Shown here: piece after piece, positions 2,516-64,000 of the stretch
Position numbering within the stretch: the first letter of the stretch is position 1
Layout of the letters: each line of letters opens with the position of its first letter
From: Enterobacteria phage XTG1
Length of the DNA stretch: 64,000 bases
Sequence record: KT184316.1
Reading direction: 5' to 3' (one strand)
Made by a program: the position numbers and the translations under genes
The notes under the pieces: model-generated
Databases searched by the model: none
Told to the model about the DNA's origin: nothing
What the model saw: the letters and a program-made list of their open reading frames with translations, nothing else

Positions 2516-2524
2516 CCAATTAGT

Positions 2525-2596: not shown

Positions 2597-2606
2597 CCAA
2601 ATTAAT

Positions 2607-2679
2607 GCTCCTATCGTATAATTGGTTATTACGGTTGCCTTGTAAGCAACTTATCAGGGTTCGAGTCCTTGTGGGAGCA
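2607..2679 (+). tRNA. tRNA-Thr (anticodon TGT)
   Basis: Acceptor gctccta/tgggagc, anticodon stem-loop gttgc-cttgtaa-gcaac, T-arm caggg-ttcgagt-ccttg, CCA encoded. Confidence 0.7.
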
Positions 2680-2778
2680 CCAATTCAGAGGTCAAGTGAA
2701 AGACCGCTTTGAGTCAACTGAAGACCGTAACAAATTCCACGGAGTTGAGTTAGCGGCACAACTCCAGACCTCTTTCAT

Positions 2779-2850
2779 ACTCGCTTAGTTTATATGGTAA
2801 AACATCACCCTTACAAGATGAAGAAAAAGGTTCAAGTCCTTTAGTGAGTA
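2779..2850 (+). tRNA. tRNA-Val (anticodon TAC)
   Basis: Acceptor actcgct/agtgagt, D-stem gttt/aaac, anticodon loop cttacaa (one C-A mismatch in stem), T-arm aaagg-ttcaagt-ccttt, CCA encoded. Confidence 0.6.
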
Positions 2851-2854
2851 CCAT

Positions 2855-2929
2855 GTTCCAGTATCCCAATTGGCAGAGGATGCAAGCTCAAACCTTGTAT
2901 TAGTGACGGTTCGAATCCGTCTTGGAACA
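2855..2929 (+). tRNA. tRNA with CAA anticodon (Leu-type) but short variable arm
   Basis: Acceptor gttccag/ttggaac, D-loop aattggcaga, anticodon stem-loop gcaag-ctcaaac-cttgt, T-arm gacgg-ttcgaat-ccgtc, A73, CCA encoded. Confidence 0.55.
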
Positions 2930-2937
2930 CCAATTTT

Positions 2938-3010
2938 GCAGGATTAGTTCAAATGGAAAGAGCAACAGTCTACGAAGCTGTTAATAGGGGTTCGAATCCC
3001 TTATCCTGCG
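2938..3010 (+). tRNA. tRNA-Arg (anticodon ACG)
   Basis: Acceptor gcaggat/atcctgc perfect, anticodon stem-loop acagt-ctacgaa-gctgt, T-arm agggg-ttcgaat-ccctt, CCA encoded. Confidence 0.7.
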
Positions 3011-3030
3011 CCAGATAAAAAGGTGATACT

Positions 3031-3273
3031 ATGCAAACATTAACAGTAGTTGAACATGAAAACTGTGAGAGTATTGAGTTTGTCAGGGTCATTGGTGTTG
3101 AACACCACATTTTCTTAAAAGTGGGATACTTATGTGACCCCGCTAGAGTAGAAAGATTTATACGTGATTGTTTTGGTGGTAGACATCTGAAGAGTGTTAT
3201 TTTTGAGACAGTTTTACCAGAAGGTTTAGAAACGAATAATAACATTTACCTCCTTACGAGGATTAGACAATGA
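3031..3273 (+). CDS. Hypothetical protein (80 aa) embedded in tRNA cluster
   Basis: ORF with RBS aaggtga 7 nt upstream of ATG; stop overlaps next start (ATGA). Confidence 0.5.
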   Translation: MQTLTVVEHENCESIEFVRVIGVEHHIFLKVGYLCDPARVERFIRDCFGGRHLKSVIFETVLPEGLETNNNIYLLTRIRQ

Positions 3274-3827
3274 GATACTTAAAGTATGCTTCATGGATTT
3301 TCTTAGCTTTGTTAGAGCCATTTGCAGCAATCTTAGCAGTTATCTTAGCACCTTTTGTAGTTCCATTCTACAGTGAGAAGAAAGGACACTTACCTTTCGG
3401 GTTCAGATGGATGGAGACATATGACAACCCAATTGATGGTGATGAAGGTCACTTTAAAAGATGGGCTAATATTAGATGGATTGGTAAACTAGGCGTCTAC
3501 ATGCAAAGAGTCGGATGGCTCTGGAGAAACAAAGCTTATAACTTCTCTTACCATGTATTAGGAAGAGATGTAAAAGATGTTACTAAGTGGAAAGGTAATA
3601 TCAACGTAAGTTCTGACCCTGAAGATAATCAGACTGGTTATCTCCTAATGTGGAACAGTAATGCTTGGGGATTATTCGCCTTTATCCCATCAATTAAAGT
3701 CTTTGGTAAACAGTTTTACTGGAGAATTTATATTGGATGGAAACTAAAAAGTGTTGTCCCAGAAGAAAGAGCATTCTCAAGGGAAAGAGTTATGTTGGCA
3801 TTCTTTATTCATCCACTGAGAAAGTAA
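3270..3827 (+). CDS. Hypothetical membrane protein (185 aa)
   Basis: RBS gagga upstream; N-terminal hydrophobic stretch WIFLALLEPFAAILAVILAPFVVPF; translationally coupled to upstream ORF. Confidence 0.55.
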   Translation: MRYLKYASWIFLALLEPFAAILAVILAPFVVPFYSEKKGHLPFGFRWMETYDNPIDGDEGHFKRWANIRWIGKLGVYMQRVGWLWRNKAYNFSYHVLGRDVKDVTKWKGNINVSSDPEDNQTGYLLMWNSNAWGLFAFIPSIKVFGKQFYWRIYIGWKLKSVVPEERAFSRERVMLAFFIHPLRK

Positions 3828-3835
3828 AGATTTAA

Positions 3836-3908
3836 AGGGGATTAGTTTACAAGGTTAAAACCTCGGTCTTTGAAATCGAAGAAGTTGGTTCAATTCCAAC
3901 ATCCCCCG
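3836..3908 (+). tRNA. tRNA-Gln (anticodon TTG)
   Basis: Anticodon stem-loop tcggt-ctttgaa-atcga, T-arm gttgg-ttcaatt-ccaac, CCA encoded. Confidence 0.65.
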
Positions 3909-3913
3909 CCAAT

Positions 3914-3989
3914 GCTCCATTACTCCAATTGGCAGAGAGGCCAGACTTAAAATCTGTGTTATGTATCGGTTCGAATCCGATATGGAGTA
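3914..3989 (+). tRNA. tRNA with TAA anticodon (Leu-type) but short variable arm
   Basis: Acceptor gctccat/atggagt, D-loop aattggcaga (paralog of 2855-2929), anticodon loop cttaaaa, T-arm atcgg-ttcgaat-ccgat, A73, CCA encoded. Confidence 0.55.
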
Positions 3990-3997
3990 CCAAATTT

Positions 3998-4070
3998 AGC
4001 GGTATAGCATAACTGGCAATGCAACAGTCTCTGAAGCTGTCCTATTAAGGTTCAAATCCTTATGCCGCTG
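3998..4070 (+). tRNA. tRNA-Gln (anticodon CTG)
   Basis: Acceptor agcggta/tgccgct, anticodon stem-loop acagt-ctctgaa-gctgt, T-arm taagg-ttcaaat-cctta, CCA encoded. Confidence 0.6.
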
Positions 4071-4104
4071 CCACTTCTAAGGATTCTTACGAGAGTCCTT
4101 AAAT

Positions 4105-4177
4105 GTGGCCTTATCATAAATGGTAATGACCCATGCTGTGAACATGGTCTATACGGGTTCAAATCCCGTAGGTCACC
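4105..4177 (+). tRNA. tRNA-His (anticodon GTG)
   Basis: Acceptor gtggcct/aggtcac, anticodon stem-loop ccatg-ctgtgaa-catgg, T-arm acggg-ttcaaat-cccgt, CCA encoded. Confidence 0.7.
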
Positions 4178-4185
4178 CCAATTTA

Positions 4186-4260
4186 TAGTCCAAGTAGCTT
4201 ATATGGTTAAAGCGCGTGTCTGAAAAACATGAGAAGAGGGTTCAAATCCCACTGGACTAC
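4186..4260 (+). tRNA. tRNA-Phe (anticodon GAA)
   Basis: Acceptor tagtcca/tggacta perfect, anticodon stem-loop cgtgt-ctgaaaa-acatg, T-loop ttcaaat. Confidence 0.65.
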
Positions 4261-4278
4261 CAATTTCAAAGGTGCTTA

Positions 4279-5013
4279 ATGAAAGAGATGACAGAACAAG
4301 GTAAGGAGATTTTTAATCTCTTAAAAACCGGTAGAGGGTTTTCTAATCCCCTTATTACTGGTGCAGCAGTTCTCGGTGGAACCGTAGCTGCCTCTACATC
4401 ACTTGTAAGTTCTATTAGCTCTGTAACAGACCCTACAATGAAGGAGAAACTTGTTGCTGCTGGACTTACAACAGTCCTTCTAAACAGCTTTACAACAAGC
4501 CTTACAAGCACTACAGCGACTACTAAGACCTTAACAGACTATGGTCAAAAGTCTATTGATGAGTTTTCATCACGTATGCAGGTAGCAAAGGGGTATTCCA
4601 ATGTTATGGGTGCAGCAGGGGAACAAGTTGGCTGTACACCGTTTAGTGGTATTATGGGCGTTGCTACAGAATATGGTCAAAAAGCTATTGACACAATTAA
4701 CAGTGCACTAGATGTCGTTAATGATGTATTAAGTGACTTACAAGATGCTATTGACAAAGGTCTTGATACTATTTCTGATTTAGCTAACCAAGCTGTTAGT
4801 AAGATTAATGAAGGTATTTCGAAGATTACAGCTTATGCAGATGAAGTTGTGCAGATGATTGAAGAAGAAGCTGCTCTTATTGCAGAGTACCTTAAAACGA
4901 ATATCAATGGGTTCTTAGCAGGTATCTTACCAGACTGGTTTGATGATGCTTGTAAAACTGGTGTGATTGACACTATTGCAACACCAGAAATGAAGAACGC
5001 ATTACAGAAATAA
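4279..5013 (+). CDS. Hypothetical protein (244 aa, Ser/Thr/Ala-rich); start refined to ATG 4279
   Basis: Track ORF 4216-5013 begins inside tRNA-Phe; in-frame ATG at 4279 has RBS aaagg upstream (MKEMTEQ...). Confidence 0.55.
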   Translation: MKEMTEQGKEIFNLLKTGRGFSNPLITGAAVLGGTVAASTSLVSSISSVTDPTMKEKLVAAGLTTVLLNSFTTSLTSTTATTKTLTDYGQKSIDEFSSRMQVAKGYSNVMGAAGEQVGCTPFSGIMGVATEYGQKAIDTINSALDVVNDVLSDLQDAIDKGLDTISDLANQAVSKINEGISKITAYADEVVQMIEEEAALIAEYLKTNINGFLAGILPDWFDDACKTGVIDTIATPEMKNALQK

Positions 5014-5014
5014 T

Positions 5015-5104
5015 GGAAGATTAACCCTAAAAGGTAAGGGAGCAGTTTGCTAAACTGCCAGTAGCTGAGAAATCGGTGTACCAGTTCAAGTCTGGTATCT
5101 TCCT
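5015..5104 (+). tRNA. tRNA-Ser (anticodon GCT), type II with long variable arm
   Basis: 90 nt; acceptor ggaagat/atcttcc perfect; anticodon stem-loop gcagt-ttgctaa-actgc; T-arm accag-ttcaagt-ctggt; CCA encoded. Confidence 0.7.
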
Positions 5105-5111
5105 CCAATTT

Positions 5112-5184
5112 GAATCCGTGACAGAAATGGCTATGTGCCTGTCTGCAAAACAGGTTTATAAGGGTTCGAGTCCCTTCGGATTCT
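5112..5184 (+). tRNA. tRNA-Cys (anticodon GCA)
   Basis: Acceptor gaatccg/cggattc perfect, anticodon stem-loop cctgt-ctgcaaa-acagg, T-arm aaggg-ttcgagt-ccctt, CCA encoded. Confidence 0.7.
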
Positions 5185-5349
5185 CCAAGTTATTTTACTC
5201 TCTCTCAATTAAAATAATAATAATGCCCTGCTATAAGTATTCTTCCTTTCGCTACCGAAGAGTATTTTTAGACAGGGCTTTTTTACAGAGCTATACTTTA
5301 TAAGAAGACTTATACAGTATGTCTCTGACGTACATTGTGGTTTCTCCTT

Positions 5350-37100: not shown

Positions 37101-37664
37101 TCAACTTAGTTTTGCAAACTCTCCGTGGAGTTTTACAGCAGCTTCACAGTAAGCTTTATGGGCTTCTTCTGGTGTATCAAACATACCAAGATGATAGTTT
37201 TTACCTTGTAAACGTATCATTGCTCTAAACCTTTTGCTTATCTTCTGTACACCTTTTGGCAACCCAGATGGGGACTTTCTTGAACGATTGCAAGAGTTTT
37301 GTGAAGCTGTACAAACCCTTAAATTCAAGTACCTATTGTCCCAACCGTCCCCATTCTTATGGTCAACCTGTAAGTTTTTATCAGGTAGATAGCCATCCAC
37401 ATATAGTATTGCTAGACGGTTAGCTTGGTAGCCTTTACCATCAAGCAATAACTGAACAGACTTGTGACCATCTGTGTTTATCCTATAATTTCCTGCCTTT
37501 TTGCCTCCAAAACGAGAGTTGAAGTTCTTATTGCCTCGTGATACCGGCTCTCTAAACTTCCAAGTAAAGACCCCTGTTTCGGGGTCGTAGTCCAATAGCT
37601 CCTTAAGACGAATTTCTGTAATCATTTCAATACCATCAATGTACTTCCAACCAGCTCTTACCAA
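37101..37664 (-). CDS. HNH homing endonuclease with AP2-like DNA-binding domain
   Basis: VDHKNGDGWDNRYLNLRVCTASQN (HNH) and C-terminal GV..RFRAMIRLQGKNYHLGMFDTPEEAHKAY (AP2-like); track ORF overlaps DNA polymerase 3' end by 29 nt. Confidence 0.65.
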   Translation of the reverse strand: MVRAGWKYIDGIEMITEIRLKELLDYDPETGVFTWKFREPVSRGNKNFNSRFGGKKAGNYRINTDGHKSVQLLLDGKGYQANRLAILYVDGYLPDKNLQVDHKNGDGWDNRYLNLRVCTASQNSCNRSRKSPSGLPKGVQKISKRFRAMIRLQGKNYHLGMFDTPEEAHKAYCEAAVKLHGEFAKLS

Positions 37665-46203: not shown

Positions 46204-47244
46204 ATGGAGAAGTACACATTAACAAAACTTCCCGATTCAGTTACACATGTTTTTATTGACTCTGACAGTATTGCCTACAAAGGTGCTTGTGTAGTTGAGA
46301 AAGCAAAATATAAATATGTCAATAAACTCACAGCAGAAGAATCTGAGCCATTTGATAATGCGAAAGATGCTGCAAGATGGTTAGCAGACCAGAGAATCCT
46401 TGTGGAAGAACTTGGCCTGACATTTGATGAAGATGAATGGGAAAGACAGACTTGGAAAGAAGCTAAGAGTGAAAAAGAAGCTATCATGGCTACTCAACAG
46501 GTGCTTCAGGAATGGCTTAAGGTTGTTGGGAAAGAAAGAACTTGGGTAGGTTATTTAACAGAGAAAGGTGTACATAAACATAAAGACATTAAAGGTCTTG
46601 AGCACCAATATCAAGGTAACCGTAAAGATGCTGTCACACCAACACACTTAGTTGCTTGTCGTGAGTATCTTCTGTCAAGACCAGAGTTCAAACTCTTAAA
46701 GGGTGGCTTCGAAGCCGATTCAATCGTAATTGCTAAAGCTGAAAAGATGGGTAAGAAAGCTGCTCTTATGAGTATTGACAAAGACCTTCGACAAGCTGAA
46801 GGAACTTATTGTATTGATATGACTTATGAAAAGTCACCACTAATTTTTATCGCTGATAATAATGTTGGTGATATCTGGGATTGTCCTATCAAATCAAAAC
46901 CAAAAGCTGCAAAAACAGTTGGTGTAGGTTTTAAATTCTTGTGTTATCAGGCTGTTGCTGGAGATAATGCAGACAACTACTTCGGCCTAAAAGGTGCTGG
47001 TAAAGTAGCTGTGATGAATGCTTTAGATGGTAAAGAGACCTACAAAGAGTGTCTTGACGCTATCTATGAACTCTATGCTAAAAAAGACTCTTATACCTAT
47101 GTGTCATGGGATGGACAGACTGTTACAAAGACACCGTTAGAGTTAATGGAACAGCATTTCTGGATAGCATATCAAGAGAGAAATCCAAAAGACAATTTCT
47201 CTTTCAAGAAATATAATTGGGAGCCGTGTATGAATGAAGATTAA
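46204..47244 (+). CDS. 5'-3' exonuclease / flap endonuclease
   Basis: N-terminal VFIDSDSIAYKG; H3TH-like GDNADNYFGLKGAGKVAV. Confidence 0.6.
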   Translation: MEKYTLTKLPDSVTHVFIDSDSIAYKGACVVEKAKYKYVNKLTAEESEPFDNAKDAARWLADQRILVEELGLTFDEDEWERQTWKEAKSEKEAIMATQQVLQEWLKVVGKERTWVGYLTEKGVHKHKDIKGLEHQYQGNRKDAVTPTHLVACREYLLSRPEFKLLKGGFEADSIVIAKAEKMGKKAALMSIDKDLRQAEGTYCIDMTYEKSPLIFIADNNVGDIWDCPIKSKPKAAKTVGVGFKFLCYQAVAGDNADNYFGLKGAGKVAVMNALDGKETYKECLDAIYELYAKKDSYTYVSWDGQTVTKTPLELMEQHFWIAYQERNPKDNFSFKKYNWEPCMNED

Positions 47245-47731
47245 AGGATTTGGCAATTGCCCTACCTACGGTCATTGGGTATCTTTATGTGGGGAAGTTG
47301 ACCCCACTAAACATTTTGGCTTTGTCTATTTAGTACACTGTAAGAAGACTGGACAATATTATATCGGAAAGAAACAGCTTAATAGTGTGACTAAAAGAAA
47401 AGTTGCTGGCAAGACTCGGAAGAAGGTAGTCACTAAGGAGAGTGATTGGATGACTTACGAAACCTCTTCTGAGTATATTAAAAAAGATATTGAAAGCTTT
47501 GGAAAAGAATCTTTTGATTTTTACATTATTCAAACCTACTACACAAAAGGTGGTCTAGTCTATGGTGAAGCAAACCTCCAACATAAATTCGATGTAATGA
47601 CAAAAAGGATTGACTCTAATCTCAGACTCTTCTACAATGCCAATATTGCAGCAATTAAGTTTATTACTAAAGAAACTTATGAAGATGCTGAAAAAAGAAT
47701 CCATAAGGTAATGAAAGCAAATTGTGCTTGA
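47234..47731 (+). CDS. GIY-YIG domain nuclease (homing-endonuclease-like)
   Basis: GFVYLVHCKKTGQYYIGK resembles GIY-(x10)-YIG motif. Confidence 0.5.
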   Translation: MKIKGFGNCPTYGHWVSLCGEVDPTKHFGFVYLVHCKKTGQYYIGKKQLNSVTKRKVAGKTRKKVVTKESDWMTYETSSEYIKKDIESFGKESFDFYIIQTYYTKGGLVYGEANLQHKFDVMTKRIDSNLRLFYNANIAAIKFITKETYEDAEKRIHKVMKANCA

Positions 47732-47737: not shown

Positions 47738-47983
47738 TTGAGAGAGAATAAAATGTTTAACAAAAGTAAAGCTGTGAGTCATGTAGCAAAGGTTGACAGC
47801 AAGATTGAAGAACTTGAGCGCATTCTTGCAAATGCCAGAGAGTCAATAATTAAAGAAGTTGAAGCTGTTGAATCCCAAATGCAGCACCTAATGCTTAAAC
47901 GTCAAGAGTTACGTGAGCATCTGGAATATATTGAAACACGAGAGCTAAAAGTTAACAGATTTTTAAGGAGTCCGAATGTTTAA
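47738..47983 (+). CDS. Hypothetical coiled-coil protein (81 aa)
   Basis: Intact ORF. Confidence 0.4.
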   Translation: MRENKMFNKSKAVSHVAKVDSKIEELERILANARESIIKEVEAVESQMQHLMLKRQELREHLEYIETRELKVNRFLRSPNV

Positions 47984-53516: not shown

Positions 53517-55661
53517 ATGAACAAAGTACAGATTATTAAAAAGAACGGCTCACTTGAAGAACCTGATATCAAAAAAGTTTTAGCAGCAGTAGCTAAGTCA
53601 GCTAACAGGGTTGGATATAAAGAACTTCCACCAGATGTTACCCAAGCTCTTGAGTCAGCATTTATGAGGATTCTGGTAAAGTCCACTAAGCAGAATAATT
53701 TGCTAATTTCTGTAAATGATATTCACAGTATTGTTGAGGGTGCTTTGGCAGAAGTCAATCACGAGATTTATGAGTCTTACTCAACATATAGAAATTACCG
53801 TAAAGAAGTTGCTCAAAATTGGGATGAGCTTTACCAGAAGACCAAAGAGACACTCTTCTTAGGTGACCGAGAAAACGCTAATTTTGACAGCAGTTTAATT
53901 TCTACAAAAGGTTCAATTATTCGTGGTTATCTGACTAAAGAAATCTTTAAACAGTACCACTTAACACCAGAGGAACTTGAAGCCATTGAAAAAGGGTTTA
54001 TCTATATCCATGATTTAAGAGACCTAATTTTTGGTGGTATCAACTGTTGCCTGTTTGACATTGGTAAAGTCCTGAAAGGTGGCTTTGAAATGTCTGGCAT
54101 CGAATATTGTGAACCGAAGTCTGTACTGTCAGCCTTACAGGTTATTGGTGACGTAGTACTTTCAGCAACTGCACAGCAATTTGGTGGTTTTACTTTAGCA
54201 GAGATTGATAAGGTACTTGTACCGTATGCTAAGAAGTCTCTACGCTATCATGCTGAGAAAGCATCATCTTATGGTATTCCTAAAGAGCATTACCACAATT
54301 ATGTAACGGAGCAGTTACAAATTGAATTAACTCAAGGTTTTCAGTCACTTGAAATGAAACTGAACACTGTACCTTGTAGCCGTGGTGATTTCGCATTCAC
54401 AACTTTAACATTTGGTTTACTTGACTCAGACATGTCTAATGAAGACAACCGGCTACAATACATGATTGCAAACACCATTCTTGATGTTCGCATGAATGGA
54501 CAAGGTAAGAGTAAGAAGCCTGTTGTATTCCCTAAACTGGTTTATATTCATGACCAGAAGAGACACGATGAGAATATCTGTCAAGGCCAACTGTACAGTA
54601 AAGCTATTGAGTGTTGCTCTAAAGCAATGTATCCAGATTTCTTAAGCGTATCTGGTCATGGTGCTGTAGCAGAGGCTTTTGAGCGTTCTGGCAAGGTAAT
54701 TTCACCGATGGGTTGCAGAGCTTTCTTATCCCCATATCTTAACGAGAATGGAGAAGAGTTCTACGTTGGTCGTGCTAACATTGGTGCTGTGTCTTTGAAC
54801 TTACCAATGATTTACCAGTGTTCTAAAGAGAATGGTTTAGATTTCTGGAAAGAGCTTGACAAGTACCTAGATATGATTCGCAGCTTCCACAAGAAACGCT
54901 ACGAAATGATTGCTAATATGCCAGCAAGCTCTAACCCTCTTGCATTCACACAAGGTGGTCTGTACAAAGGGACCAAGAAACCTACTGACAAGGTTGGTTG
55001 GGATATCGTGAAGTCTTTCACAGCTTCTTTTGGGGTTACTGCGCTTGATGAGTTATCTGTTCTTGCTGAAGGTAAACGGCTGCATGAAGTTGGGAGCTAT
55101 AGTTTTGCATACGATGTTCTGGCATACATTAACATGAAAACTGAAGAGTTTAAAAATGAAGATGGCTTCTTATATGCTGTCTATGGTACTCCAGCAGAAT
55201 CACTTTGTGGAACTCAGCTAAAACAGTTCAGAGAAATGTTTGGTGTTATCAAAGGTGTTTCTGACAAGGAATACTTTACAAACAGTTTCCATATGAATGT
55301 TGCAGCAGACATCTCACCATTTGAGAAGCAGGACTTAGAAGAGCCATTCTTCCATATCTGTAGAGGTGGCAGAATCCAGTATGTCAGGGTAGCTAACCCA
55401 GAAAACTTACCAGCACTTAAAAGCTGTATTACCAGAGGGATGTTGAAAGGTTTCTATCAGGGACTTAACTTTGACTTAGCAATCTGTGAGCATTGTGGTA
55501 ACAGACCAAAATCAGATGTTGAAGAGTGTGAAGTTTGTCACTCACATGATATCTCTGTGATTAACAGGGTGTGTGGGTATCTTGGATGGACTAAGATTAA
55601 AGGTGAATCCCGAATGAACGATGCAAAAATCGCTGAGATTCGTGACAGAGTTTCTATGTAA
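53517..55661 (+). CDS. nrdD: Anaerobic ribonucleoside-triphosphate reductase
   Basis: 714 aa; C-terminal zinc site CEHCG...CEVCHS and glycyl-radical motif RVCGYLG. Confidence 0.85.
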   Translation: MNKVQIIKKNGSLEEPDIKKVLAAVAKSANRVGYKELPPDVTQALESAFMRILVKSTKQNNLLISVNDIHSIVEGALAEVNHEIYESYSTYRNYRKEVAQNWDELYQKTKETLFLGDRENANFDSSLISTKGSIIRGYLTKEIFKQYHLTPEELEAIEKGFIYIHDLRDLIFGGINCCLFDIGKVLKGGFEMSGIEYCEPKSVLSALQVIGDVVLSATAQQFGGFTLAEIDKVLVPYAKKSLRYHAEKASSYGIPKEHYHNYVTEQLQIELTQGFQSLEMKLNTVPCSRGDFAFTTLTFGLLDSDMSNEDNRLQYMIANTILDVRMNGQGKSKKPVVFPKLVYIHDQKRHDENICQGQLYSKAIECCSKAMYPDFLSVSGHGAVAEAFERSGKVISPMGCRAFLSPYLNENGEEFYVGRANIGAVSLNLPMIYQCSKENGLDFWKELDKYLDMIRSFHKKRYEMIANMPASSNPLAFTQGGLYKGTKKPTDKVGWDIVKSFTASFGVTALDELSVLAEGKRLHEVGSYSFAYDVLAYINMKTEEFKNEDGFLYAVYGTPAESLCGTQLKQFREMFGVIKGVSDKEYFTNSFHMNVAADISPFEKQDLEEPFFHICRGGRIQYVRVANPENLPALKSCITRGMLKGFYQGLNFDLAICEHCGNRPKSDVEECEVCHSHDISVINRVCGYLGWTKIKGESRMNDAKIAEIRDRVSM

Positions 55662-56714: not shown

Positions 56715-57200
56715 ATGAATTACATGGAGATTCGACCATTTGACACAGCTAATGGTGAAGGGGTTCGTGTAAGCCTCTTCGTAGCTGGTTGTAAGCATCA
56801 CTGTGAAGGCTGCTTTAACAGGGAGTCTTGGAAGTTTAATGCTGGTAAAGAGTTTACTTATGCAAACCTCTACGGTATCATTAAGTTAATGGATGATAAT
56901 GCCATCAGTGGGCTGTCAATACTTGGTGGAGAACCTCTGGATGATAGAAACATTCAAGAGGTTACCAACATATGCAAACGTATTAAAACCGTTTACCCAG
57001 AAAAATCTATCTGGCTCTGGACAGGTTTTCAGTTACATGAAAAAATTCACCTTGATGTGATGAAATATGTTGACGTGGTGATTGATGGTAAGTATGATTC
57101 ATCTAAACCAACAGTTAAACCATATCGTGGTTCTGATAACCAAAACCTCTGGAGAAAAGAGTATGGATGGCAAGGCGATTGTCAATGGAGAGCCGAGTAA
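56715..57200 (+). CDS. nrdG: Anaerobic ribonucleotide reductase activating protein (radical SAM)
   Basis: CKHHCEGC radical-SAM cysteine cluster near N-terminus; 161 aa; downstream of nrdD. Confidence 0.8.
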   Translation: MNYMEIRPFDTANGEGVRVSLFVAGCKHHCEGCFNRESWKFNAGKEFTYANLYGIIKLMDDNAISGLSILGGEPLDDRNIQEVTNICKRIKTVYPEKSIWLWTGFQLHEKIHLDVMKYVDVVIDGKYDSSKPTVKPYRGSDNQNLWRKEYGWQGDCQWRAE

Positions 57201-57324
57201 GTCTCGTCGTAAAGTAGGTTATCGGTAAAGGGCACTTTACAATGTTCTACAGAACAAACTTAACCGTTTGTGTCACTGAAAAAGAACTTAAAACATTTTG
57301 TGAAAAGATTGAGAGAGATATGAA

Positions 57325-57582
57325 ATGGGACTCTGGAATAGTTTTAAATCAAAAGTAAAAGCAGCACTAGCTTCATTAGGTATGCTCACTGGTGTTGATG
57401 TGACTCACCTTATGCAGAACTTCAATATGGATGAGAAGCTGGCTAATGAGATTATGAAAAGTATCTATGTAGGCCGTGGTAAAGGTGGTAAGAAACAAGC
57501 CCACCGTCCGTCTGGTGCAGCAGCTATTAAACGAGCAGCTAAGAAAGCTCGTAACCGTAAACGTAATAAGAAGGCTAAATAA
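57325..57582 (+). CDS. Hypothetical protein with basic C-terminus (85 aa)
   Basis: Intact ORF; C-terminal K/R-rich tail. Confidence 0.4.
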   Translation: MGLWNSFKSKVKAALASLGMLTGVDVTHLMQNFNMDEKLANEIMKSIYVGRGKGGKKQAHRPSGAAAIKRAAKKARNRKRNKKAK

Positions 57583-57584
57583 TC

Positions 57585-57905
57585 ATGAGCAAAGTTTATA
57601 ACACTCGCAAATTACAGATTTTCGTACTGTGCCAGTTTATGGCTAAAGAATATAACTTCTACTATTGCGGCACAGGTTTTATTAGCGACGATGATGGTTC
57701 ATACCTACCATTTAAAGAAGCTGTGAAGCTCTTTAATGAAGAGAAAAGCTCTAAGAAAGATATTGAAAAGGTTAAGCTAACCTACAGCAAGAAAGATAAG
57801 AAGATTATCTGCCTAGATAACTTTGTGAAAGTTACTGGAGAAGCAAAAGAGTTTATGGATGAGAGTGAGATTTCATTCACAAGCATCTTGAAAGTAGCTC
57901 AGTAA
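57585..57905 (+). CDS. Hypothetical protein (106 aa)
   Basis: Coupled ORF. Confidence 0.45.
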   Translation: MSKVYNTRKLQIFVLCQFMAKEYNFYYCGTGFISDDDGSYLPFKEAVKLFNEEKSSKKDIEKVKLTYSKKDKKIICLDNFVKVTGEAKEFMDESEISFTSILKVAQ

Positions 57906-57956
57906 ACAGATACTATAAGGGGACTGTAAAGGTTCCCTTTTTATTTTGGAGGTAAA

Positions 57957-58472
57957 ATGTATCTGTCAAACCTGAAACGTTCGGTTGCAATGTCAGTTCT
58001 AAGACTCAGCTTTGATGAGCGTCAAGAGTTTATAGACTCCCACAAATATGACCCTTCAAATTCTAATCACATGGTTCTTTGGAATCGTGATAACTTCCGT
58101 GAAAGAGCACTTGTCCGTTATTACCCACACTACACAATAGATAACCTGTATGAATGGTGTGTTGTGAAGAACACCATTGCAACACTGAACAATCTTTGCA
58201 GGTATACGGGTAAGCAAACATTTACATTAGGTCATCACAAACCTGTTACAAAAGGTGGTGAACATCACTGTGCAAACTGGTTTATCCAAACTAAAACTGA
58301 TAACCAGAAGCAAGGAGATAGCCTCCTAAGTATCCCTAAGATGACCTATGAAGAGCAAGAGAAATATATCAAAAATAATATGCCAGATGTGCTTGACAAC
58401 AACTATACAGATTTGGCAATATATCTCCTGTTGAAGTTCGAGACAGTTTATAGGGCAACTTATAATGGCTAG
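57957..58472 (+). CDS. HNH-like nuclease domain protein
   Basis: LGHHKPVTKGGEHHCANWFIQTKTDNQKQG resembles an HNH core; weak. Confidence 0.4.
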   Translation: MYLSNLKRSVAMSVLRLSFDERQEFIDSHKYDPSNSNHMVLWNRDNFRERALVRYYPHYTIDNLYEWCVVKNTIATLNNLCRYTGKQTFTLGHHKPVTKGGEHHCANWFIQTKTDNQKQGDSLLSIPKMTYEEQEKYIKNNMPDVLDNNYTDLAIYLLLKFETVYRATYNG

Positions 58473-58743
58473 AGAAAAGTGGGAGATTTTACCATTAGTC
58501 AGTGAAGGAGGTAATGGTTGTGAAATGTACATGATACGTGGTCATGTTCCAGAGCCAATTGCACTTGAGATGGTAAACAACTTTACAGATGGTTCTTACA
58601 AAGACTTAGGCGAACCAACTGTCAAGCAACAATGGGTTAAACCTGTACCAGACAGCACAGGTAACTGTAGTGTACTTTATCACGTTGTAGACCCTGCAAA
58701 ATGCAAATCTGCAATGGCAGTAACAAACGTAACTTTTGATTGA
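58465..58743 (+). CDS. Hypothetical protein (92 aa)
   Basis: Coupled ORF directly upstream of Prs-like gene. Confidence 0.45.
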   Translation: MAREKWEILPLVSEGGNGCEMYMIRGHVPEPIALEMVNNFTDGSYKDLGEPTVKQQWVKPVPDSTGNCSVLYHVVDPAKCKSAMAVTNVTFD

Positions 58744-58754
58744 GAGAGAAAACT

Positions 58755-59636
58755 ATGAAAACATCTATCCGTGTTACAGTTCATTCACCAACTAAAGGAA
58801 CTCATGAAGAAGAGTTTAACATCATCCAATTTCCTTCTGGTGAGATTGGTGGACACTTTTCGCCAGAGTTTGTTGATTTCACTGCTTATGCAGCATCATC
58901 CATCAACAATGTGATTATGATTGTAAAAGGTTATGATAAGGATACATTGTTTGCTGTGGCACTTGCTAAAGAAGCAATTGATGATTTAATTCCTCATGAT
59001 TATGCTTTAAAGACTGTCATCTTTTACTACTTACCAAATGCACGTTATGACCGTCACATGTTTAAAGGCGACGCAGCAGCTTTAAAGGTTTTTGCTAAAC
59101 AGATTAATGCAATGGGGTTTGGCGCAGTCTGTGCAGTTGACCCTCACAGCTATGTACCAGATAACCTGTTTAACTGCTTCCAGAGTATTCCTCAAAAGGA
59201 GATTGCAGTCCACTATGCAAATGACCCTCTAATTGATTACTTAGTAGCCCCAGATGCAGGTGCTTCTAAGAAGATTGCAGAGACTGCTAAAGAGGTGGAT
59301 AAACCATATATCACAATGTCTAAGGTGCGAAATCTTAAGACTGGAGAAATCACTGGTATGCGAATCCTTGACGATGTTGATTTGACAGATAAAACTGTCA
59401 TGATTCTGGATGATATTTGTGATGGAGGTCGAACCTTCATAGAAGCAGCTAAACATCTTCGTGAAGCAGGTGCAAAACGTGTTGAGCTTTATGTAACACA
59501 TGGTATCTTCTCTAAAGGTGTTGAAAACCTTCTTGACAATGGTATCGACCATATTTACACTACAAACTCTTTAGGCGAAGCTAAAGACCGTGGCTTAACA
59601 CATTATGGTCAAGTTACTGTAGCAAACCTTGATTGA
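58755..59636 (+). CDS. Ribose-phosphate pyrophosphokinase (PRPP synthetase) family protein; candidate ADP-ribose pyrophosphokinase of an NAD+ reconstitution module
   Basis: Prs-family blocks FPSGEI, NARYDRH, VDPHS, VAPDAGA, VMILDDICDGGRT ... AKRVELYVTHGIFS; start set at ATG 58755 with RBS gagagag. Confidence 0.7.
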   Translation: MKTSIRVTVHSPTKGTHEEEFNIIQFPSGEIGGHFSPEFVDFTAYAASSINNVIMIVKGYDKDTLFAVALAKEAIDDLIPHDYALKTVIFYYLPNARYDRHMFKGDAAALKVFAKQINAMGFGAVCAVDPHSYVPDNLFNCFQSIPQKEIAVHYANDPLIDYLVAPDAGASKKIAETAKEVDKPYITMSKVRNLKTGEITGMRILDDVDLTDKTVMILDDICDGGRTFIEAAKHLREAGAKRVELYVTHGIFSKGVENLLDNGIDHIYTTNSLGEAKDRGLTHYGQVTVANLD

Positions 59637-59645
59637 AAGTTTATA

Positions 59646-59667
59646 GGGGCTTGAAAGCCCCATTTTG
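59646..59667 (+). terminator. Hairpin between Prs-like and NAMPT-like genes
   Basis: ggggct-tgaa-agcccc followed by attttg. Confidence 0.4.
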
Positions 59668-59681
59668 AGAGAGATTAAAAG

Positions 59682-61463
59682 ATGACTAAATCACTTTATG
59701 CAGTACCAGCAGGTTTAAACGCAGATGCTTACAAATCTGGTCATGTTTACCAGTACCCTAGTGCAACAGAATATTTGATGTTCAACCTGACACCACGTAG
59801 CGACAAATGGTTTAACAGTCCATTAGCAATTGATGGTGTAGTCGCTTTTGGTATTCAACGTTTTGTTAAAGATTACTTGATAGACCACTGGAACGCTACG
59901 TTCTTTGAACGTGACAAAAAAGAAGCAATTGACGAAATCTTAGAAGTCATGAATGGTGTTCTGGGCAAAGATGCTATCGGTCGAGAGCATTGGGAAGCAC
60001 TCCACGATTTAGGTTATCTACCAGTTGAAGTATATGCTGTAGAAGAAGGTACAGTTGTCCCGATGCGTGTCCCAATGATTGTCTTCCAGAACACTGTTTC
60101 AGGCTTCCATTGGGTAGCAGGTTATCTGGAAGATGCTTTCTCTGCTGAGATTTGGAAGGCTTGCACCATTGCGACTATTGCATTGCACTACAAACGCATC
60201 TGTAAGAAGTGGGCTGACCTTACTTGTGACAATGACTTACATTTACCTTATCAGTGCCATGATTTTGCTATGCGTGGTATGTCCGGCTTTACTGATGACG
60301 CATTTAACGCTGTAGGTCACTTAACCAGCTTTAAAGGGACTGATAGCTTCCCTGCTGTATACACGGCTAAACGAATCTATGGACAGTCCTACCCAATCTC
60401 TGATATTGGTAGTTCTGTACCAGCCACTGAGCACTCTGTAATGTGTGCAAACATTGCTTGGGAAGGTGGTAATGAGTTGATTGAAGAAGAAAGACGCTTT
60501 AAAGGTGAGTTACAAACCTTCCGTCGTTTCTTAACAGAAACTTACCCAACAGGTATTGCAAGCATTGTTTCAGATACTTATAACTTCTGGAGAACTGTGT
60601 CAGAAATCTTACCAGCACTTCGTAAAGAAATTATGGAACGTGATGGCAAACTGGTAATTCGCCCTGACTCTGGAGACCCTGTACATATTGTCACAGGTTA
60701 TAAAGCAATCCACTTAGAATGTGCTAAGAAGGCTTATTACGAGCACCTAAGCAAGCTGGAAGCCAGTGACACAATGTTGAATGCTGTTCTGAACATGAAG
60801 CTTGAGAACATCAACTATGGTATTGCTGGATGGCTACTGTCAGAAGGCTACGAGATGGTTGTTGACAGAGAAGACTTTGAAGTTGCTGATACAGTGATGT
60901 TGAAAAATGCTTATATGGTTGGTTCTGCAAACGTTGTAACACGTCCTGTAGCTGAGATTGATGGAGCTATTAAGACACTGTACAACATCTTTGGGGGAAC
61001 TATTAACTCTAAAGGTTTTAAAGTACTGGATGAGCATATTGGACTTATTTATGGCGACTCTATCACGTTGGAACGTGCAAATGAAATACTGAAGCGTTTG
61101 TATGAAATGGGTTTTGCAAGCTCTAACGTAGTGTTTGGTGTAGGTTCTTACACTTACCAGTACATGACTCGTGACACCTTTGCATTTGCTGTCAAAGCAA
61201 CTCTTGCAAGCATTGGTGGTAAAGAGATTATGCTTGCAAAAGACCCTAAAACAGATAGTGGTGTTAAGAAGTCTGCTTTTGGTGGTGTAGCACCTATGTG
61301 GGATGGTGAAAATCTGAAAGCTGTAGATGGCTATGGGTTCCAGAGCTTTGCAGATGCACTTGAACATCCAGCTTGTGCTTTACGTCTAGTCTTTAGCGAC
61401 TCTGAGCAGTTCGGCTACACAACTCTTGGTGATATTCGAAATAATATTGACAAGCAGCTTTAA
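59682..61463 (+). CDS. Nicotinamide phosphoribosyltransferase (NAMPT) family protein; candidate nicotinamide ADP-ribose transferase
   Basis: N-terminal NADAYKSGHVYQYP matches the NAMPT TDSYK..H..QYP signature; 593 aa; RBS gagag; directly downstream of Prs-like gene. Confidence 0.75.
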   Translation: MTKSLYAVPAGLNADAYKSGHVYQYPSATEYLMFNLTPRSDKWFNSPLAIDGVVAFGIQRFVKDYLIDHWNATFFERDKKEAIDEILEVMNGVLGKDAIGREHWEALHDLGYLPVEVYAVEEGTVVPMRVPMIVFQNTVSGFHWVAGYLEDAFSAEIWKACTIATIALHYKRICKKWADLTCDNDLHLPYQCHDFAMRGMSGFTDDAFNAVGHLTSFKGTDSFPAVYTAKRIYGQSYPISDIGSSVPATEHSVMCANIAWEGGNELIEEERRFKGELQTFRRFLTETYPTGIASIVSDTYNFWRTVSEILPALRKEIMERDGKLVIRPDSGDPVHIVTGYKAIHLECAKKAYYEHLSKLEASDTMLNAVLNMKLENINYGIAGWLLSEGYEMVVDREDFEVADTVMLKNAYMVGSANVVTRPVAEIDGAIKTLYNIFGGTINSKGFKVLDEHIGLIYGDSITLERANEILKRLYEMGFASSNVVFGVGSYTYQYMTRDTFAFAVKATLASIGGKEIMLAKDPKTDSGVKKSAFGGVAPMWDGENLKAVDGYGFQSFADALEHPACALRLVFSDSEQFGYTTLGDIRNNIDKQL

Positions 61464-61477
61464 AAGTATATGATAAG

Positions 61478-61499
61478 AGGCTCCTACGGGAGCCTTTTT
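61478..61499 (+). terminator. Rho-independent terminator (UACG tetraloop) closing the Prs-like/NAMPT-like pair
   Basis: aggctcc-tacg-ggagcc followed by ttttt. Confidence 0.65.
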
Positions 61500-61516
61500 A
61501 ATTTCTGGAGAAGATT

Positions 61517-61852
61517 ATGAAAATCAAAGAGATGAACATCAACATCGTCTTAGAGGAACGTTGGGAGAACATCAAGAAACCTGAAAATGGTCATAAGTTC
61601 CTTAACAAAATTTTAGTAGCAGCTAAAGAAGAACTGACTGGTAAGATTGCAGCAGCAATCACAATAAAGGTCTGTGTAAAAGGTCTTCCAGACAATCACC
61701 AATTTGCACTTGACGAGTTTAAAGAAAGCTTCTACAATCCAAATAAACAGATGCTTGAAAGTAACTTTGCAGTATCTACAAGTATCGTTCATGACAGAAG
61801 CTTTATCCTTTACAAAAACATGAGAGGTGAGTCATGCAAGCATATTGGATAG
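61517..61852 (+). CDS. Hypothetical protein (111 aa)
   Basis: Intact ORF. Confidence 0.45.
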   Translation: MKIKEMNINIVLEERWENIKKPENGHKFLNKILVAAKEELTGKIAAAITIKVCVKGLPDNHQFALDEFKESFYNPNKQMLESNFAVSTSIVHDRSFILYKNMRGESCKHIG

Positions 61853-62010
61853 AAATTTTACTGTCACTTGGTAGTGTAGCAATATTTGTTTGCCTTCTTT
61901 GTAAGTACTTTGCAGAACACAAAAAGTGTGACTACTGTAACGGAGAAGGGTATACAAGAGCAGGTTGTTGCCCTATTTGTGGTGGTTCTGGTAAAATGTT
62001 TAATAAGTAA
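61834..62010 (+). CDS. Small membrane protein with C-terminal CxxC..CxxC (58 aa)
   Basis: ATG 61834; hydrophobic N-terminus and CDYCNGEG...CCPICGGSG; below the ORF-track length cutoff. Confidence 0.35.
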   Translation: MQAYWIEILLSLGSVAIFVCLLCKYFAEHKKCDYCNGEGYTRAGCCPICGGSGKMFNK

Positions 62011-62039
62011 TTTAACAGTAAACTAAGAGGAAAGTATTA

Positions 62040-64000
62040 TGCGCATGGTAAACGACCACGCAGAAGTGATTAAGAGTTCAACTTCTTTAGAGACGTCTCA
62101 AGCACAGATTACAATGACACCTGAGATGTTCAGCCTTTTGAGTTCTGGTGTATATACCTTTAAAGAAAGGGCAGTGATTCGTGAACTGTCATGTAACGCA
62201 GTAGATGCTCAGAAAGAAGCTGGAAAAGAGAACATCCCATTCCATGTGCATTTACCTACTCGTTTTGAGCCTTACTTCGAAGTTCGTGATTTTGGAACTG
62301 GATTGACTCATGATAAAGTTATGAGTTTGTACCTAAACTATGGAGCTTCTACGAAGAATGACTCTAATGACTACATTGGTGCAATGGGTATCGGCTCAAA
62401 GTCACCATTTGCAATTGCTCAGTCATTCACAGTATCGAGCTATGTTGATGGTGTTGTTAATAAGTACTCTGTTTATCTTGAGAATGGTATCCCTCAAGTA
62501 ACTAAGCTGACAACTAACCCAACAAAAGAACCTAATGGTTTAGCTGTACGTGTGGCAGTTGCTGACCACCGTATCTCAAAGTTCTTTGAAGAAGCTGGGA
62601 ATGTGTACTCATACTTCACTGTAAAACCAGAAAGTAATATTGAGTACGACGATGTATTAGCAGATATGAACGTCATTGCTCGTGAAGAAGGTGTTTATGA
62701 TGCCATGATTCATAAGCAAAGCTGGCGTTCTAGTGGTAACAAGACAGAGTTTAATGTGGTGATGGGTAACATTGCCTACCCTGTTAATATGGAAGCATTA
62801 CTTGGCGATGATTTCTTCAAAGTATTGCCAGAATTTTTCCGTAGGAGTGTAGACCTTGTAAACATCTACATGCCTATTGGTTCAGTTGCTATTGCAGCTT
62901 CTCGTGAAGCATTACAGATGAATGACACGACAAAAAATGTTATCATTGAGGCTACTAAAAAGATAACTGAAGCCATTACAAAGGATGTTATCAAGAAAGT
63001 TAATAGCCAACCTACACTCATGGATGCTGCACAGGCTTATGCTGAGTTACGTTTGAACTCACGAGAGATGTTTAATGCTGTGTGTCCAAAGCTAGAGTGG
63101 GGAGGCGTTAAGCTTGATTCTCTGGAAGAAGAATTGCTAAACATTCGTCGTGGGATTATCTACGCAGAAGACGGCTCAGTCATTTATGAACGTGACGGTA
63201 AAGGTAATATTAAGGTTGATAGGAACGGAAACAACATCCCTAAAGTAGATTACCTTTATGACCCAGTTGCTTATGTCAAGTTCAACTCTTTAGAGAGTAA
63301 GATTCGTGCAACAGCACTTTCCTACACTCAAGAGGCAAGTATGTTCAATATCTTTGGTGCAATGCGTAAAAGCCAAATTGAACAGTTTTTGTTCGTGATT
63401 AATGACCGTCGCAATAAAAACGGTACTGAGAAGACTGTAGGACGAAATCAAATCTTGCGTGGTGCATGTCGAGACTACGCTAACGAGTCAGGCCTGTTCC
63501 ACAGATACAATGGTATTGTGTTTGTATTCTCTAATGAGAAAGAGTTAGATGATTTAATCAATCTGCACAAACTTGATAAAAGCTTGTTAAAGATTGTGAA
63601 AATGTCTGATAAGGAGCACCATTATCAGCGTAAAGAAGCTGTGAGGGGCGTTGTAAAACTCTGGAAAGCTGTTCCAGCAGAAGCTGTAGCTTCATACAAA
63701 GAGGTATCAGAAGACCTAGACACAATTGAAGAGCCTCAGCTTTATATTAAGGCAGTAGGCGACACAGTTGATGGTAGATGTTTTTGCTCATCTCCAGAAG
63801 ATGTAGCTAAGTCAGTTGCTAATGTTACAGGTAAGACAGTCTATGTTTTCCGAAAAGCAAATTGGAAAAAGATACCAGAAGATTGGATTGAAGTAGATGA
63901 GAAACTCTTGAACGACAGCTTAACTGATGTTCACTGGATTAACCATAACAGATATATGACGCGTATCTATATGAATGGTGTCCTTGACCTTACAAGCAGT
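62040..64000 (+). CDS. GHKL-type ATPase domain protein, possibly rIIA-like; 3' end beyond window
   Basis: Bergerat-fold motifs ELSCNAVDA and VRDFGTGL, then GAMGIGSKS; open frame to window end; absent from ORF track, presumably because it has no stop inside the window. Confidence 0.45.

Follow-up and report, generated by a model that had tools for sequence, protein, structure and literature searches.

The gene pair at positions 58755 to 61463 of the window, the 64-kb stretch of phage DNA that was analyzed, is very probably the NARP1 operon (Adps plus Namat) of a Felixounavirus and the ortholog of genes 79 and 80 of phage Bas63. The initial annotation had proposed a module that leads from ADP-ribose (ADPR) through ADPR-PP to NAD+, and this proposal is borne out by the orthology to Bas63, the clamp signature of the Namat protein, and the lack of an NMNAT motif; together with the conserved catalytic residues, these observations form the basis of the identification made here. 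The chemistry and the antidefense phenotype of the window operon are supported by analogy, through the literature on orthologs and homologs. Since the Bas63 genes are those from which NARP1 was discovered, the system is real but not new.

The source genome is Felix O1-like, with 96 to 99% nucleotide identity to KhF1, KhF3, HY02, wV8, and others, and the window includes an array of 25 tRNAs. The first gene, adps (58755 to 59636, plus strand), encodes a Prs-family protein of 293 amino acids counted from an ATG that is equivalent to the start used in the Bas63 annotation; an in-frame TTG at 58740 (plus strand) is an alternative start. The second gene, namat (59682 to 61463, plus strand), encodes a NAMPT-family protein of 593 amino acids. 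The two genes lie on the same strand with a 45-nt spacer (59637 to 59681), in agreement with their earlier description as a codirectional pair 45 bp apart. Antisense open reading frames inside both genes (59241 to 59552 and 60840 to 61367, minus strand) were dismissed as spurious in view of the strong conservation of the sense frames. A scan of positions 57000 to 62500 against Rfam at an E value of ≤0.1 gave zero matches.

In the proposed mechanism, host defenses such as SIR2-HerA, DSR1/2, type I Thoeris, SEFIR, and similar systems would cleave NAD+ to ADP-ribose and nicotinamide. With ATP as the donor, Adps would add pyrophosphate to the terminal ribose of ADPR, generating ADPR-PP, and Namat would then let nicotinamide displace the pyrophosphate of ADPR-PP. 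This last step would yield NAD+ directly, so that neither NMN nor an NMN adenylyltransferase would be needed.

Genetic evidence for this scheme comes from Bas63. NARP1 was discovered by deleting genes 79 and 80 of this Felixounavirus; the resulting phage was sensitive to SIR2-HerA and NAD+ depletion was worse, the effect of the two genes was independent of host pncC and nadR, and ADPR-PP (m/z 720.010) was seen only when wild-type Bas63 infected SIR2-HerA cells (bioRxiv 10.1101/2024.02.11.579819). In a separate preprint, deletion of Bas63 g79 or g80 lowered plating on Sir2-HerA by 10^4- to 10^6-fold, and complementation restored it. The in vitro biochemistry comes from homologs of the window and Bas63 enzymes; Bas63 Adps itself "did not purify well" (bioRxiv 10.1101/2024.02.11.579819). 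Adps of the Bacillus phage SPbetaL1 converts ADPR and ATP to ADPR-PP and gave no measurable product in a control assay for PRPP synthesis, for which the substrates are given as ribose-5-phosphate and ATP in the legend of Fig. 2D and as "PRPP and ATP" in the body text. SPbetaL1 Namat prefers ADPR-PP to PRPP; in vitro, this preference and direct NAD+ synthesis were recorded only for the SPbetaL1, P. foliorum, and DyoEdafos Namat enzymes, and the activity of Bas63 Namat was deduced from in vivo metabolites. These homologs are distant, with about 38% identity for SPbetaL1 Namat and about 28% (27.6%) for the validated DyoEdafos Adps. NARP1 loci number 859 in 20,185 phage genomes (10.64898/2026.01.28.702374), and a NAMPT-family gene immediately adjoins 97% of the Adps-clade genes (NARP1 source paper). 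The window pair has the same arrangement, in that its adps, syntenic to that of Bas63, lies 45 bp from a NAMPT-family gene.

The initial annotation was right in describing the second gene as NAMPT-like and long, as the length of the open reading frame agrees and the matches to NAPRTase (6.8e-35) and PRK09198 (1.4e-140) are far beyond chance. The protein is 99% identical to Bas63_0080 (585 of 593 residues), and its top PDB matches by both sequence and fold were the SPbetaL1 Namat structures 9w5w and 9w5x (4.6e-128; TM 0.95), which ranked above all Nampt structures; the AF2 model used had a pLDDT of 93.1 and a pTM of 0.91. The selectivity-clamp loop (SCL) is S40-D41-K42-W43 (59799 to 59810, plus strand), the same as in Bas63, and aligns to T38-S39-R40-V41 of SPbetaL1 Namat. 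The published rule allows Arg, Lys, or Tyr as the third residue of this loop and assigns the stacking to the fourth residue when the third is Lys or Tyr; in Bas63 Namat, the third residue is Lys and the fourth stacks on adenine (PMC12774641). The window Namat follows this rule with Lys42 third and Trp43 fourth. The Namat consensus for the selectivity-clamp helix (SCH) is GSx(phi)x(phi)x(phi)TRD, in which positions 3 and 7 of the motif are aromatic and stack on adenine. In the window protein, this helix reads GSYTYQYMTRD (amino acids 488 to 498; 61143 to 61175, plus strand), which matches the consensus and has an aromatic at both positions. The corresponding helices are GSFTYQYNTRD in SPbetaL1 Namat, GAQTYQRNTRD in Haemophilus ducreyi NadV, and GGALLQKVDRD in Xanthomonas (Xcc) Nampt; both aromatics are missing from the Nampt enzymes (human and Xanthomonas) and also from the fairly close H. 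ducreyi NadV.

The ligand contacts of SPbetaL1 Namat are largely preserved as well. Seventeen are identical in the window protein (D15, Y17, F195, R198, D221, A248, H251, R327, D329, G458, D459, G488, S489, Y494, T496, R497, and D498), and most of these are invariant in an alignment of 32 sequences, including Y17, F195, R198, D221, H251, R327, and D329, which align to SPbetaL1 and are invariant in the 32 homologs. Two contacts are changed (S190 to A196 and A362 to S460), and Bas63 has both changes. The window Namat also contains an inserted alpha/beta subdomain of about 88 residues (amino acids ~340 to 427; 60699 to 60962, plus strand), which is confidently folded in the AF2 model and for which no structural relatives were detected. 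In the sequence, it follows the RPDSGDP strand and precedes the GDS loop, which contacts the AMP phosphate. Felix O1-like phages and their relatives among the enterobacterial phages share this insertion in Namats of ~590 to 610 amino acids; it is absent from SPbetaL1 Namat, from bacterial homologs of ~496 amino acids, which have a 24-residue linker instead, and from Nampt.

The Adps protein belongs to the Prs family but stands apart from its housekeeping members. It matches Pribosyltran (1.5e-11), Pribosyl_synth (2.9e-09), and TIGR01251 (9.8e-35), all far beyond chance, as well as phrog_619 (1.3e-97), and the motifs quoted for the pair in the initial annotation (FPSGEI, NARYDRH, VMILDDICDGGRT, and DAYKSGHVYQYP) were all found in the translations. 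In an alignment with Prs structures, the protein shows FPSGEI, NARYDRH, DPHS, an S-K190-V-R loop, and DDICDGGRT; by this alignment, K190 would be the counterpart of the catalytic-loop lysine K162 of SPbetaL1 Adps. The profile comparison with bona fide Prs that had been suggested earlier separates the two: the protein passes the generic TIGR01251 subfamily model by a narrow margin (119.9 versus 113), whereas it scores 42 to 103 bits against the NCBIfam equivalog and lineage-specific Prs models, for which the cutoffs are 296 to 536 (for example, 91 bits versus a cutoff of 297 for one equivalog). Because all of these scores are far under the cutoffs, Adps is not a housekeeping-type Prs. A PADLOC scan found weak similarity to the ShosT and PsyrT toxins in the PRTase domain (E value of about 5e-6), which was read as a common domain, and membership in those families was rejected.

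At equal length, Adps is 78% identical to Bas63_0079 (230 of 293 residues), and the differences are concentrated in one segment (58758 to 59297, plus strand; the N-terminal ~180 codons). Nucleotide identity to Bas63 is 57 to 62% at positions 58758 to 59027 and 73 to 84% from there up to 59297, compared with 89 to 99% in the flanks; the drop is sharp and local and begins at the start codon. At the protein level, 121 of the 180 N-terminal residues are identical (67%) versus 109 of the 113 C-terminal residues (96%). The N-terminal half of the window Adps is therefore an allele distinct from that of Bas63. At ≥90% nucleotide identity, the window-type allele is found in 155 phage records and the Bas63/Felix O1 type in 57, and the identities of adps homologs in tblastn searches are bimodally distributed. 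Because the N-terminal 180 residues are so different from those of the genetically tested Bas63 protein, substrate specificity is a point that we infer from sequence, and the window allele would share that of its Bas63 ortholog. The abruptness of the drop within otherwise nearly identical DNA, the commonness of each allele, and the bimodal identities could instead indicate that the operon is NARP1 with an N-terminal Adps allele that alters substrate range, regulation, or susceptibility to host factors relative to the Bas63/Felix O1 allele, in which case the two alleles would differ in function; this is improbable, as the catalytic motifs FPSGEIGG, LPNARYDRHMFKGDAAALKVFA, and DPHS are the same in both alleles, the partner Namat, which requires ADPR-PP, is 99% identical, and mosaicism of this kind is ordinary among Felix O1-like phages.

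The two-allele pattern of Adps and the Namat insertion are details beyond the cited papers, which mention neither. That they have functions of their own is a tentative and rather doubtful suggestion; their roles may include docking of Adps so that the labile ADPR-PP is channeled, a regulatory function, or evasion of a host factor that inhibits or senses NARP1.

The absence of an NMN adenylyltransferase bears on the conventional alternative, a salvage route in which PRPP made from ribose-5-phosphate by the Prs-like enzyme feeds NMN synthesis by the NAMPT-like enzyme and the completion of NAD+ falls to host NadR or PncC. No H.GH motif was found in any open reading frame of at least 45 amino acids in the window or in stop-to-stop segments of at least 60 amino acids in all six frames of the 64 kb, so the lack of an HxGH protein, initially claimed for several kilobases, extends to the whole window. 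The search for an NMNAT elsewhere in the genome likewise gave no H.GH motif in positions 30000 to 87100 of Bas63, which served as a stand-in for the genome segment that the window lacks. Pfam scans of the open reading frames at 28.6 to 64 kb, apart from the DNA polymerase, primase-helicase, and ribonucleotide-reductase genes, detected no NMNAT (CTP_transf_like), Nudix, Macro, or RyR domain, and there were no Macro (PF01661, PF14519, or PF20016) or RyR (PF02026) domains in the four open reading frames upstream and two downstream of the operon. NARP1 and NARP2 have not been found together in one phage, and the lack of an Nmnat in the window and the Bas63 stand-in is that expected for NARP1.

Conventional salvage is the reading that the database names and the Pfam and NCBIfam domains of Prs and NAMPT would suggest. 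SPbetaL1 Namat is able to form NMN from PRPP in vitro, keeping about half of the NMN-forming activity of human Nampt, and some flux through NMN is thus possible. Even so, this explanation is highly improbable for the window pair and is largely refuted for the Bas63 ortholog, where the operon counters SIR2-HerA even in a pncC nadR double mutant (bioRxiv 10.1101/2024.02.11.579819). The control assay for PRPP synthesis by SPbetaL1 Adps yielded no product (with ribose-5-phosphate, per the Fig. 2D legend), the Prs equivalog models are far under their cutoffs, and the adenine clamp of the window Namat would have no purpose with PRPP. With no NMNAT motif in the window or the Bas63 stand-in and a clamp present, both NARP2 and canonical salvage were rejected in favor of NARP1. 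Least probable of all is a role broader than NADase defenses, in the supply of NAD+ or adenine nucleotides in any infection: a preprint credits Bas63 g79 and g80 with a benefit against retron Ec86 and the hhe system as well, but depletion of NAD+ or adenine may be part of those effects too, ADPR-PP was detected only with an NADase defense present, and NARP1 requires ADPR and nicotinamide, the products of NAD+ cleavage.

The initial annotation had described the pair as bracketed by hairpins, which is only partly so. A terminator-like hairpin with a T-run (AAGAGGCUCC-UACG-GGAGCCUUUU; 61475 to 61498, plus strand) begins 12 nt past the namat stop codon, with a fold energy of -17.2 kcal/mol (z score of -3.1), and a promoter-like TTGACA-16-TATGAT (11/12) lies just ahead of it at 61447 to 61474. 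A second hairpin (GGGGCU-UGAA-AGCCCC, followed by AUUUU; 59646 to 59661, plus strand) lies in the spacer, which as a whole folds at -12.6 kcal/mol (z score of -3.0) and is 87 to 100% identical to that of Bas63. Directly 5' of adps, no hairpin was found, only an imperfect inverted repeat (58581 to 58626) inside the upstream open reading frame; because that frame (58465 to 58743) abuts adps, there is no intergenic space, and the nearest upstream terminator-like hairpin (57917 to 57939) is two genes away. In phage SUSP1, an HNH endonuclease gene sits in the adps-namat spacer, and an HNH endonuclease is annotated within the NARP1 locus of several Felixounaviruses. The decamer TTGAGAGAGA occurs 15 nt ahead of the adps ATG (58740 to 58749, plus strand) and again 17 nt ahead of the namat ATG (59665 to 59674). 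Five exact copies are present in the window, four of them on the plus strand; of these four, three precede an ATG start codon by 15 to 17 nt, and the other overlaps the TTG with which open reading frame 47738 starts. The decamer is probably a shared translation initiation region.

In NARP1, the virus rebuilds a metabolite that the host has destroyed, and the defense protein is not blocked; the two reactions were unknown before 2024. The system is now published and widespread, the function called for the window pair was correct and already known, and the value of the present result is confirmatory in that NARP1 could be recognized from raw sequence. The annotation matters in practice because "ribose-phosphate pyrophosphokinase" and "nicotinamide phosphoribosyltransferase" are still the names of the two genes in the public records consulted. 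It is also relevant to phage therapy, as Felix O1-like phages with the minimal operon are predicted to be resistant to NADase defenses of the SIR2, TIR, and DSR types, and, by published logic (10.64898/2026.01.28.702374), minimal NARP1 is predicted to be unable to overcome aRES, a defense that yields ADPR-1''-phosphate.

Compared with known systems, the window pair shares folds and catalytic motifs with cellular Prs and Nampt/NadV, from which it differs in falling short of the Prs equivalog HMMs and in having the SCH aromatics at positions 3 and 7. NARP2 of Vibrio phage KVP40 (the Nampt NadV plus the bifunctional Nmnat NatV) likewise uses a NAMPT-family enzyme to restore NAD+ against depletion, but it uses PRPP and requires an Nmnat, whereas the window has an adjacent Adps, an adenine clamp, and no HxGH-motif protein. 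The adps and namat core is shared with NARP1-AP (Adpp; Vibrio phage Gary) and RyDEP NARP1 (Mycobacterium phage DyoEdafos); unlike these variants, the window operon has no Macro-domain phosphatase or RyR-domain glycosidase among the open reading frames scanned at 28.6 to 64 kb. With NARP1 of SPbetaL1, it shares the two-enzyme logic, the Namat fold (TM 0.95), the catalytic residues, and the SCH motif; SPbetaL1 Namat, at 491 amino acids, lacks both the ~88-residue subdomain and an insertion of ~15 residues near positions 258 to 272, and its SCL relies on Arg40 in place of the Lys42-Trp43 of the window protein. The closest counterpart is Bas63 (JohannRWettstein, MZ501086; bas63_0079 and bas63_0080), which carries an extra small open reading frame (bas63_0081) after namat and differs in the N-terminal 180 residues of Adps (only 67% identical) but has the same genus, gene order, protein lengths (293 and 593 amino acids), and 45-bp spacer with a hairpin, the same upstream orthologs of gp77 and gp78, and the rIIA gene further downstream.

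The adps gene (58755-59636, + strand) encodes a Prs-like protein of 293 amino acids when read from its ATG, with an in-frame TTG at 58740 (+) as an alternative start, and is followed after a 45-nt spacer (59637-59681) by namat (59682-61463, + strand), which encodes a NAMPT-like protein of 593 amino acids. The ORF list bears out the co-directional pair 45 bp apart described in the initial annotation, and every motif quoted there was found in the Adps and Namat translations. Adps matches the profiles Pribosyltran (1.5e-11) and Pribosyl_synth (2.9e-09) and passes TIGR01251, the generic model for Prs (119.9 bits; cut-off, 113), and it scores far under the cut-off of all Prs equivalog models (e.g., 91 bits versus 297). 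Namat matches NAPRTase (6.8e-35), PRK09198 (1.4e-140), and NAMPT_N. Genes 79-80 of Bas63 (Escherichia phage JohannRWettstein) have exactly the same lengths, order, and 45-bp spacing; Namat is identical to Bas63_0080 at 585 of 593 residues and Adps to Bas63_0079 at 230 of 293, and the product of ORF 57957-58472, located 5' of adps, is 88% identical to Bas63 gp77. Judged by these comparisons, the window genes are orthologous to Bas63 genes 79-80, beyond family resemblance.

NARP1 (Adps plus Namat) was discovered by deletion of this two-gene operon in the BASEL phage Bas63, a Felixounavirus (MZ501086). Without genes 79-80, Bas63 plated ~20-fold worse on SIR2-HerA and caused a deeper drop in NAD+; protection by the operon was kept in a host lacking pncC and nadR, and ADPR-PP (m/z 720.010) and ADPR-cP were seen only in SIR2-HerA cells infected with wild-type Bas63 (bioRxiv 10.1101/2024.02.11.579819). 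As Bas63 Adps did not purify, homologs from Bacillus phage SPbetaL1 were used for the biochemistry; the SPbetaL1 Adps converted ADP-ribose (ADPR) and ATP to ADPR-PP, and the SPbetaL1 Namat converted ADPR-PP and nicotinamide to NAD+, preferring ADPR-PP over PRPP (10.1101/2024.02.11.579819). A PRPP-synthesis control assay with SPbetaL1 Adps gave no measurable product, its substrates being ribose-5-phosphate and ATP in the legend of Fig. 2D and "PRPP and ATP" in the body text (10.1101/2024.02.11.579819). In an independent knockout-library preprint, loss of g79 or g80 lowered plating on Sir2-HerA by 10^4-10^6, which complementation restored; effects on retron Ec86 and hhe were also reported and were weaker. 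In XTG1, a host NADase effector would cleave NAD+ to ADPR and nicotinamide, Adps would transfer pyrophosphate from ATP onto the terminal ribose of ADPR, and Namat would replace the pyrophosphate with nicotinamide to regenerate NAD+. This mechanism, whose steps are known from homologs and orthologs, very probably operates in the window phage.

The "selectivity clamp" for ADPR-PP that characterizes Namat consists of a helix (SCH) and a loop (SCL) stacking on adenine; the third SCL residue is Arg, Lys, or Tyr, and with Lys the stacking is provided by the fourth residue, as in Bas63 (PMC12774641). The window Namat has the SCH GSYTYQYMTRD (aa 488-498) and the SCL S40-D41-K42-W43. At the SCH, SPbetaL1 Namat reads GSFTYQYNTRD, whereas H. 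ducreyi NadV, a Nampt fairly close in sequence, reads GAQTYQRNTRD and a Xanthomonas Nampt reads GGALLQKVDRD. The catalytic and ligand-contact residues of SPbetaL1 Namat correspond to identical residues in the window protein except for two contacts (S190 to A196 and A362 to S460), both of which are also changed in Bas63; Y17, F195, R198, D221, H251, R327, and D329 are invariant in a 32-sequence alignment. The SPbetaL1 Namat structures 9w5w/9w5x are the top matches both by sequence (4.6e-128) and by fold of the AF2 model (pLDDT 93.1; TM 0.95), ahead of H. ducreyi NadV and all Nampt structures. The NAD+ reconstitution reading originally proposed is supported, as the locus is NARP1, orthologous to Bas63 genes 79-80 and with the Namat clamp present.

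The absence of an HxGH-type NMNAT, initially noted within several kilobases, extends across the whole 64-kb window, in which no H.GH motif was found in ORFs of at least 45 aa or in stop-to-stop segments of at least 60 aa (six frames); none was found either in Bas63 30000-87100, a span that includes the part of the genome absent from the window. Pfam detected no CTP_transf_like, Nudix, Macro, or RyR domain in the neighbors and the ORFs of 28.6-64 kb, a scan covering genes other than those for DNA polymerase, primase-helicase, and ribonucleotide reductase. The window operon is therefore a minimal two-gene NARP1. Among other published NAD+-rebuilding forms, NARP2 was rejected since no NMNAT motif was found in the window and no NMNAT domain in the scanned ORFs, NARP1-AP since its Macro phosphatase domain was not found in those ORFs, and RyDEP-extended NARP1 since no RyR domain was found there. 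Adps and Namat match separate parts (49-224 and 236-534, respectively) of phrog_12872 ("nicotinamide phosphoribosyl transferase," 547 profile positions), which suggests that fused Adps-Namat proteins exist in some phages.

The pair had been described as bracketed by hairpins, which holds in part: one hairpin lies in the spacer (59646-59661, +) and namat is followed by another, terminator-like and with a T-run (61475-61498, +), each folding more stably than shuffled controls (z about -3), and none lies directly 5' of adps because ORF 58465-58743 abuts the gene. The closest terminator-like hairpin 5' of adps is at 57917-57939. A sigma-70-like promoter close to consensus (TTGACA-16-TATGAT, 11/12) lies across the end of namat, directly before the terminator-like hairpin (61447-61498), a pairing with a comparable counterpart at 57888-57939. 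The decamer TTGAGAGAGA occurs 15-17 nt 5' of the ATG of adps (58740-58749), namat (59665-59674), and ORF 57325 (57309-57318), and a further copy (47738-47747) overlaps the start of ORF 47738; with one mismatch allowed there are 17 matches versus 9.0 expected, and the decamer is probably a shared ribosome-binding region. The spacer with its hairpin resembles a homing site. In SUSP1 this is precisely where an HNH endonuclease gene is located (L003 3891-4382), and skuden, VpaE1, GEC_vB_BS, and other Felixounaviruses have a ~470-bp extra segment and an annotated HNH endonuclease in the locus.

The opening 25 kb of the window and the adps-namat locus share 96-99% nucleotide identity with numerous Felix O1-like phages infecting E. 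coli and Salmonella, including KhF1/2/3, HY02, wV8, and LF82P5. An array of 25 tRNA genes (1-5187, +), typical of such phages, is followed by virion genes and then by replication and nucleotide metabolism genes, including those for thymidylate synthase, DHFR, ligase, dNMP kinase, and NrdG, and the last gene, incomplete at the window end, aligns with rIIA of KhF1 and Bas63. From this content and identity, the window covers roughly three quarters of a Felixounavirus genome. The replication region contains free-standing homing endonuclease genes, one beside the DNA polymerase gene (HNH_3 plus AP2, 37101-37664, -) and one SegE-like GIY-YIG (47234-47731, +). The 171-aa product of ORF 57957-58472 belongs to phrog_3500, with a weak HNH-like PHROG match; a preprint reports that its Bas63 counterpart gp77, described there as GIY-YIG, counters retron Ec67 ~10-fold and that rIIA/rIIB (window 62039 onward) counter qatABCD. 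Given these neighbors, the window NARP1 sits in a stretch rich in anti-defense genes.

Over its 5' half (58758-59297), adps is a divergent allele with sharp boundaries, showing 57-84% nucleotide identity to Bas63 between flanks of 89-99%; identity is 57-62% from the start codon to ~59027 and at least 89% again by ~59300. Identity between the two Adps proteins is 67% over residues 1-180 and 96% over residues 181-293, and their Prs-type motifs are the same. Two allele classes circulate in Felixounavirus, both common: the window type is present in 155 phage records (at least 90% nucleotide identity) and the Bas63/Felix O1 type in 57. VpaE1 has the window type, and its derivative VpaE1_ev035 has the Bas63/Felix O1 type. 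The main caveat is that the adps allele of the window is not the one tested genetically in Bas63; the window Adps is predicted to have the same activity because its partner Namat, which needs ADPR-PP, is 99% identical.

The window Namat also contains an inserted subdomain of ~88 residues (aa ~340-427; 60699-60962, +), located between the RPDSGDP strand and the helix before the GDS loop, that is not in SPbetaL1 Namat, 496-aa bacterial homologs, or Nampt. This site is 19 to 102 residues long in different family members, and the long form is common to homologs of ~590-610 aa with identities as low as ~46%; besides those of Felix O1-like phages, these include proteins whose names refer to Suspvirus, Yersinia, and Pectobacterium phages. 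The insertion is confidently folded in the AF2 model, had no Pfam match and no structural relative found, and goes unmentioned in the cited papers, with a text search of the Namat structure paper returning no mention.

Compared with Bas63, the window lacks the small ORF bas63_0081 after namat (Bas63, L002 25509-25853; window, 61514), and its nrdD is uninterrupted (53517-55661), whereas that of Bas63 (L002 16631-19517) is split by a homing endonuclease insertion. NARP1 has been counted at 859 loci in 20,185 phage genomes (10.64898/2026.01.28.702374). The window locus is this already published system, in its archetypal genus; what goes beyond the cited papers is the allelic form of Adps and the insertion in Namat.
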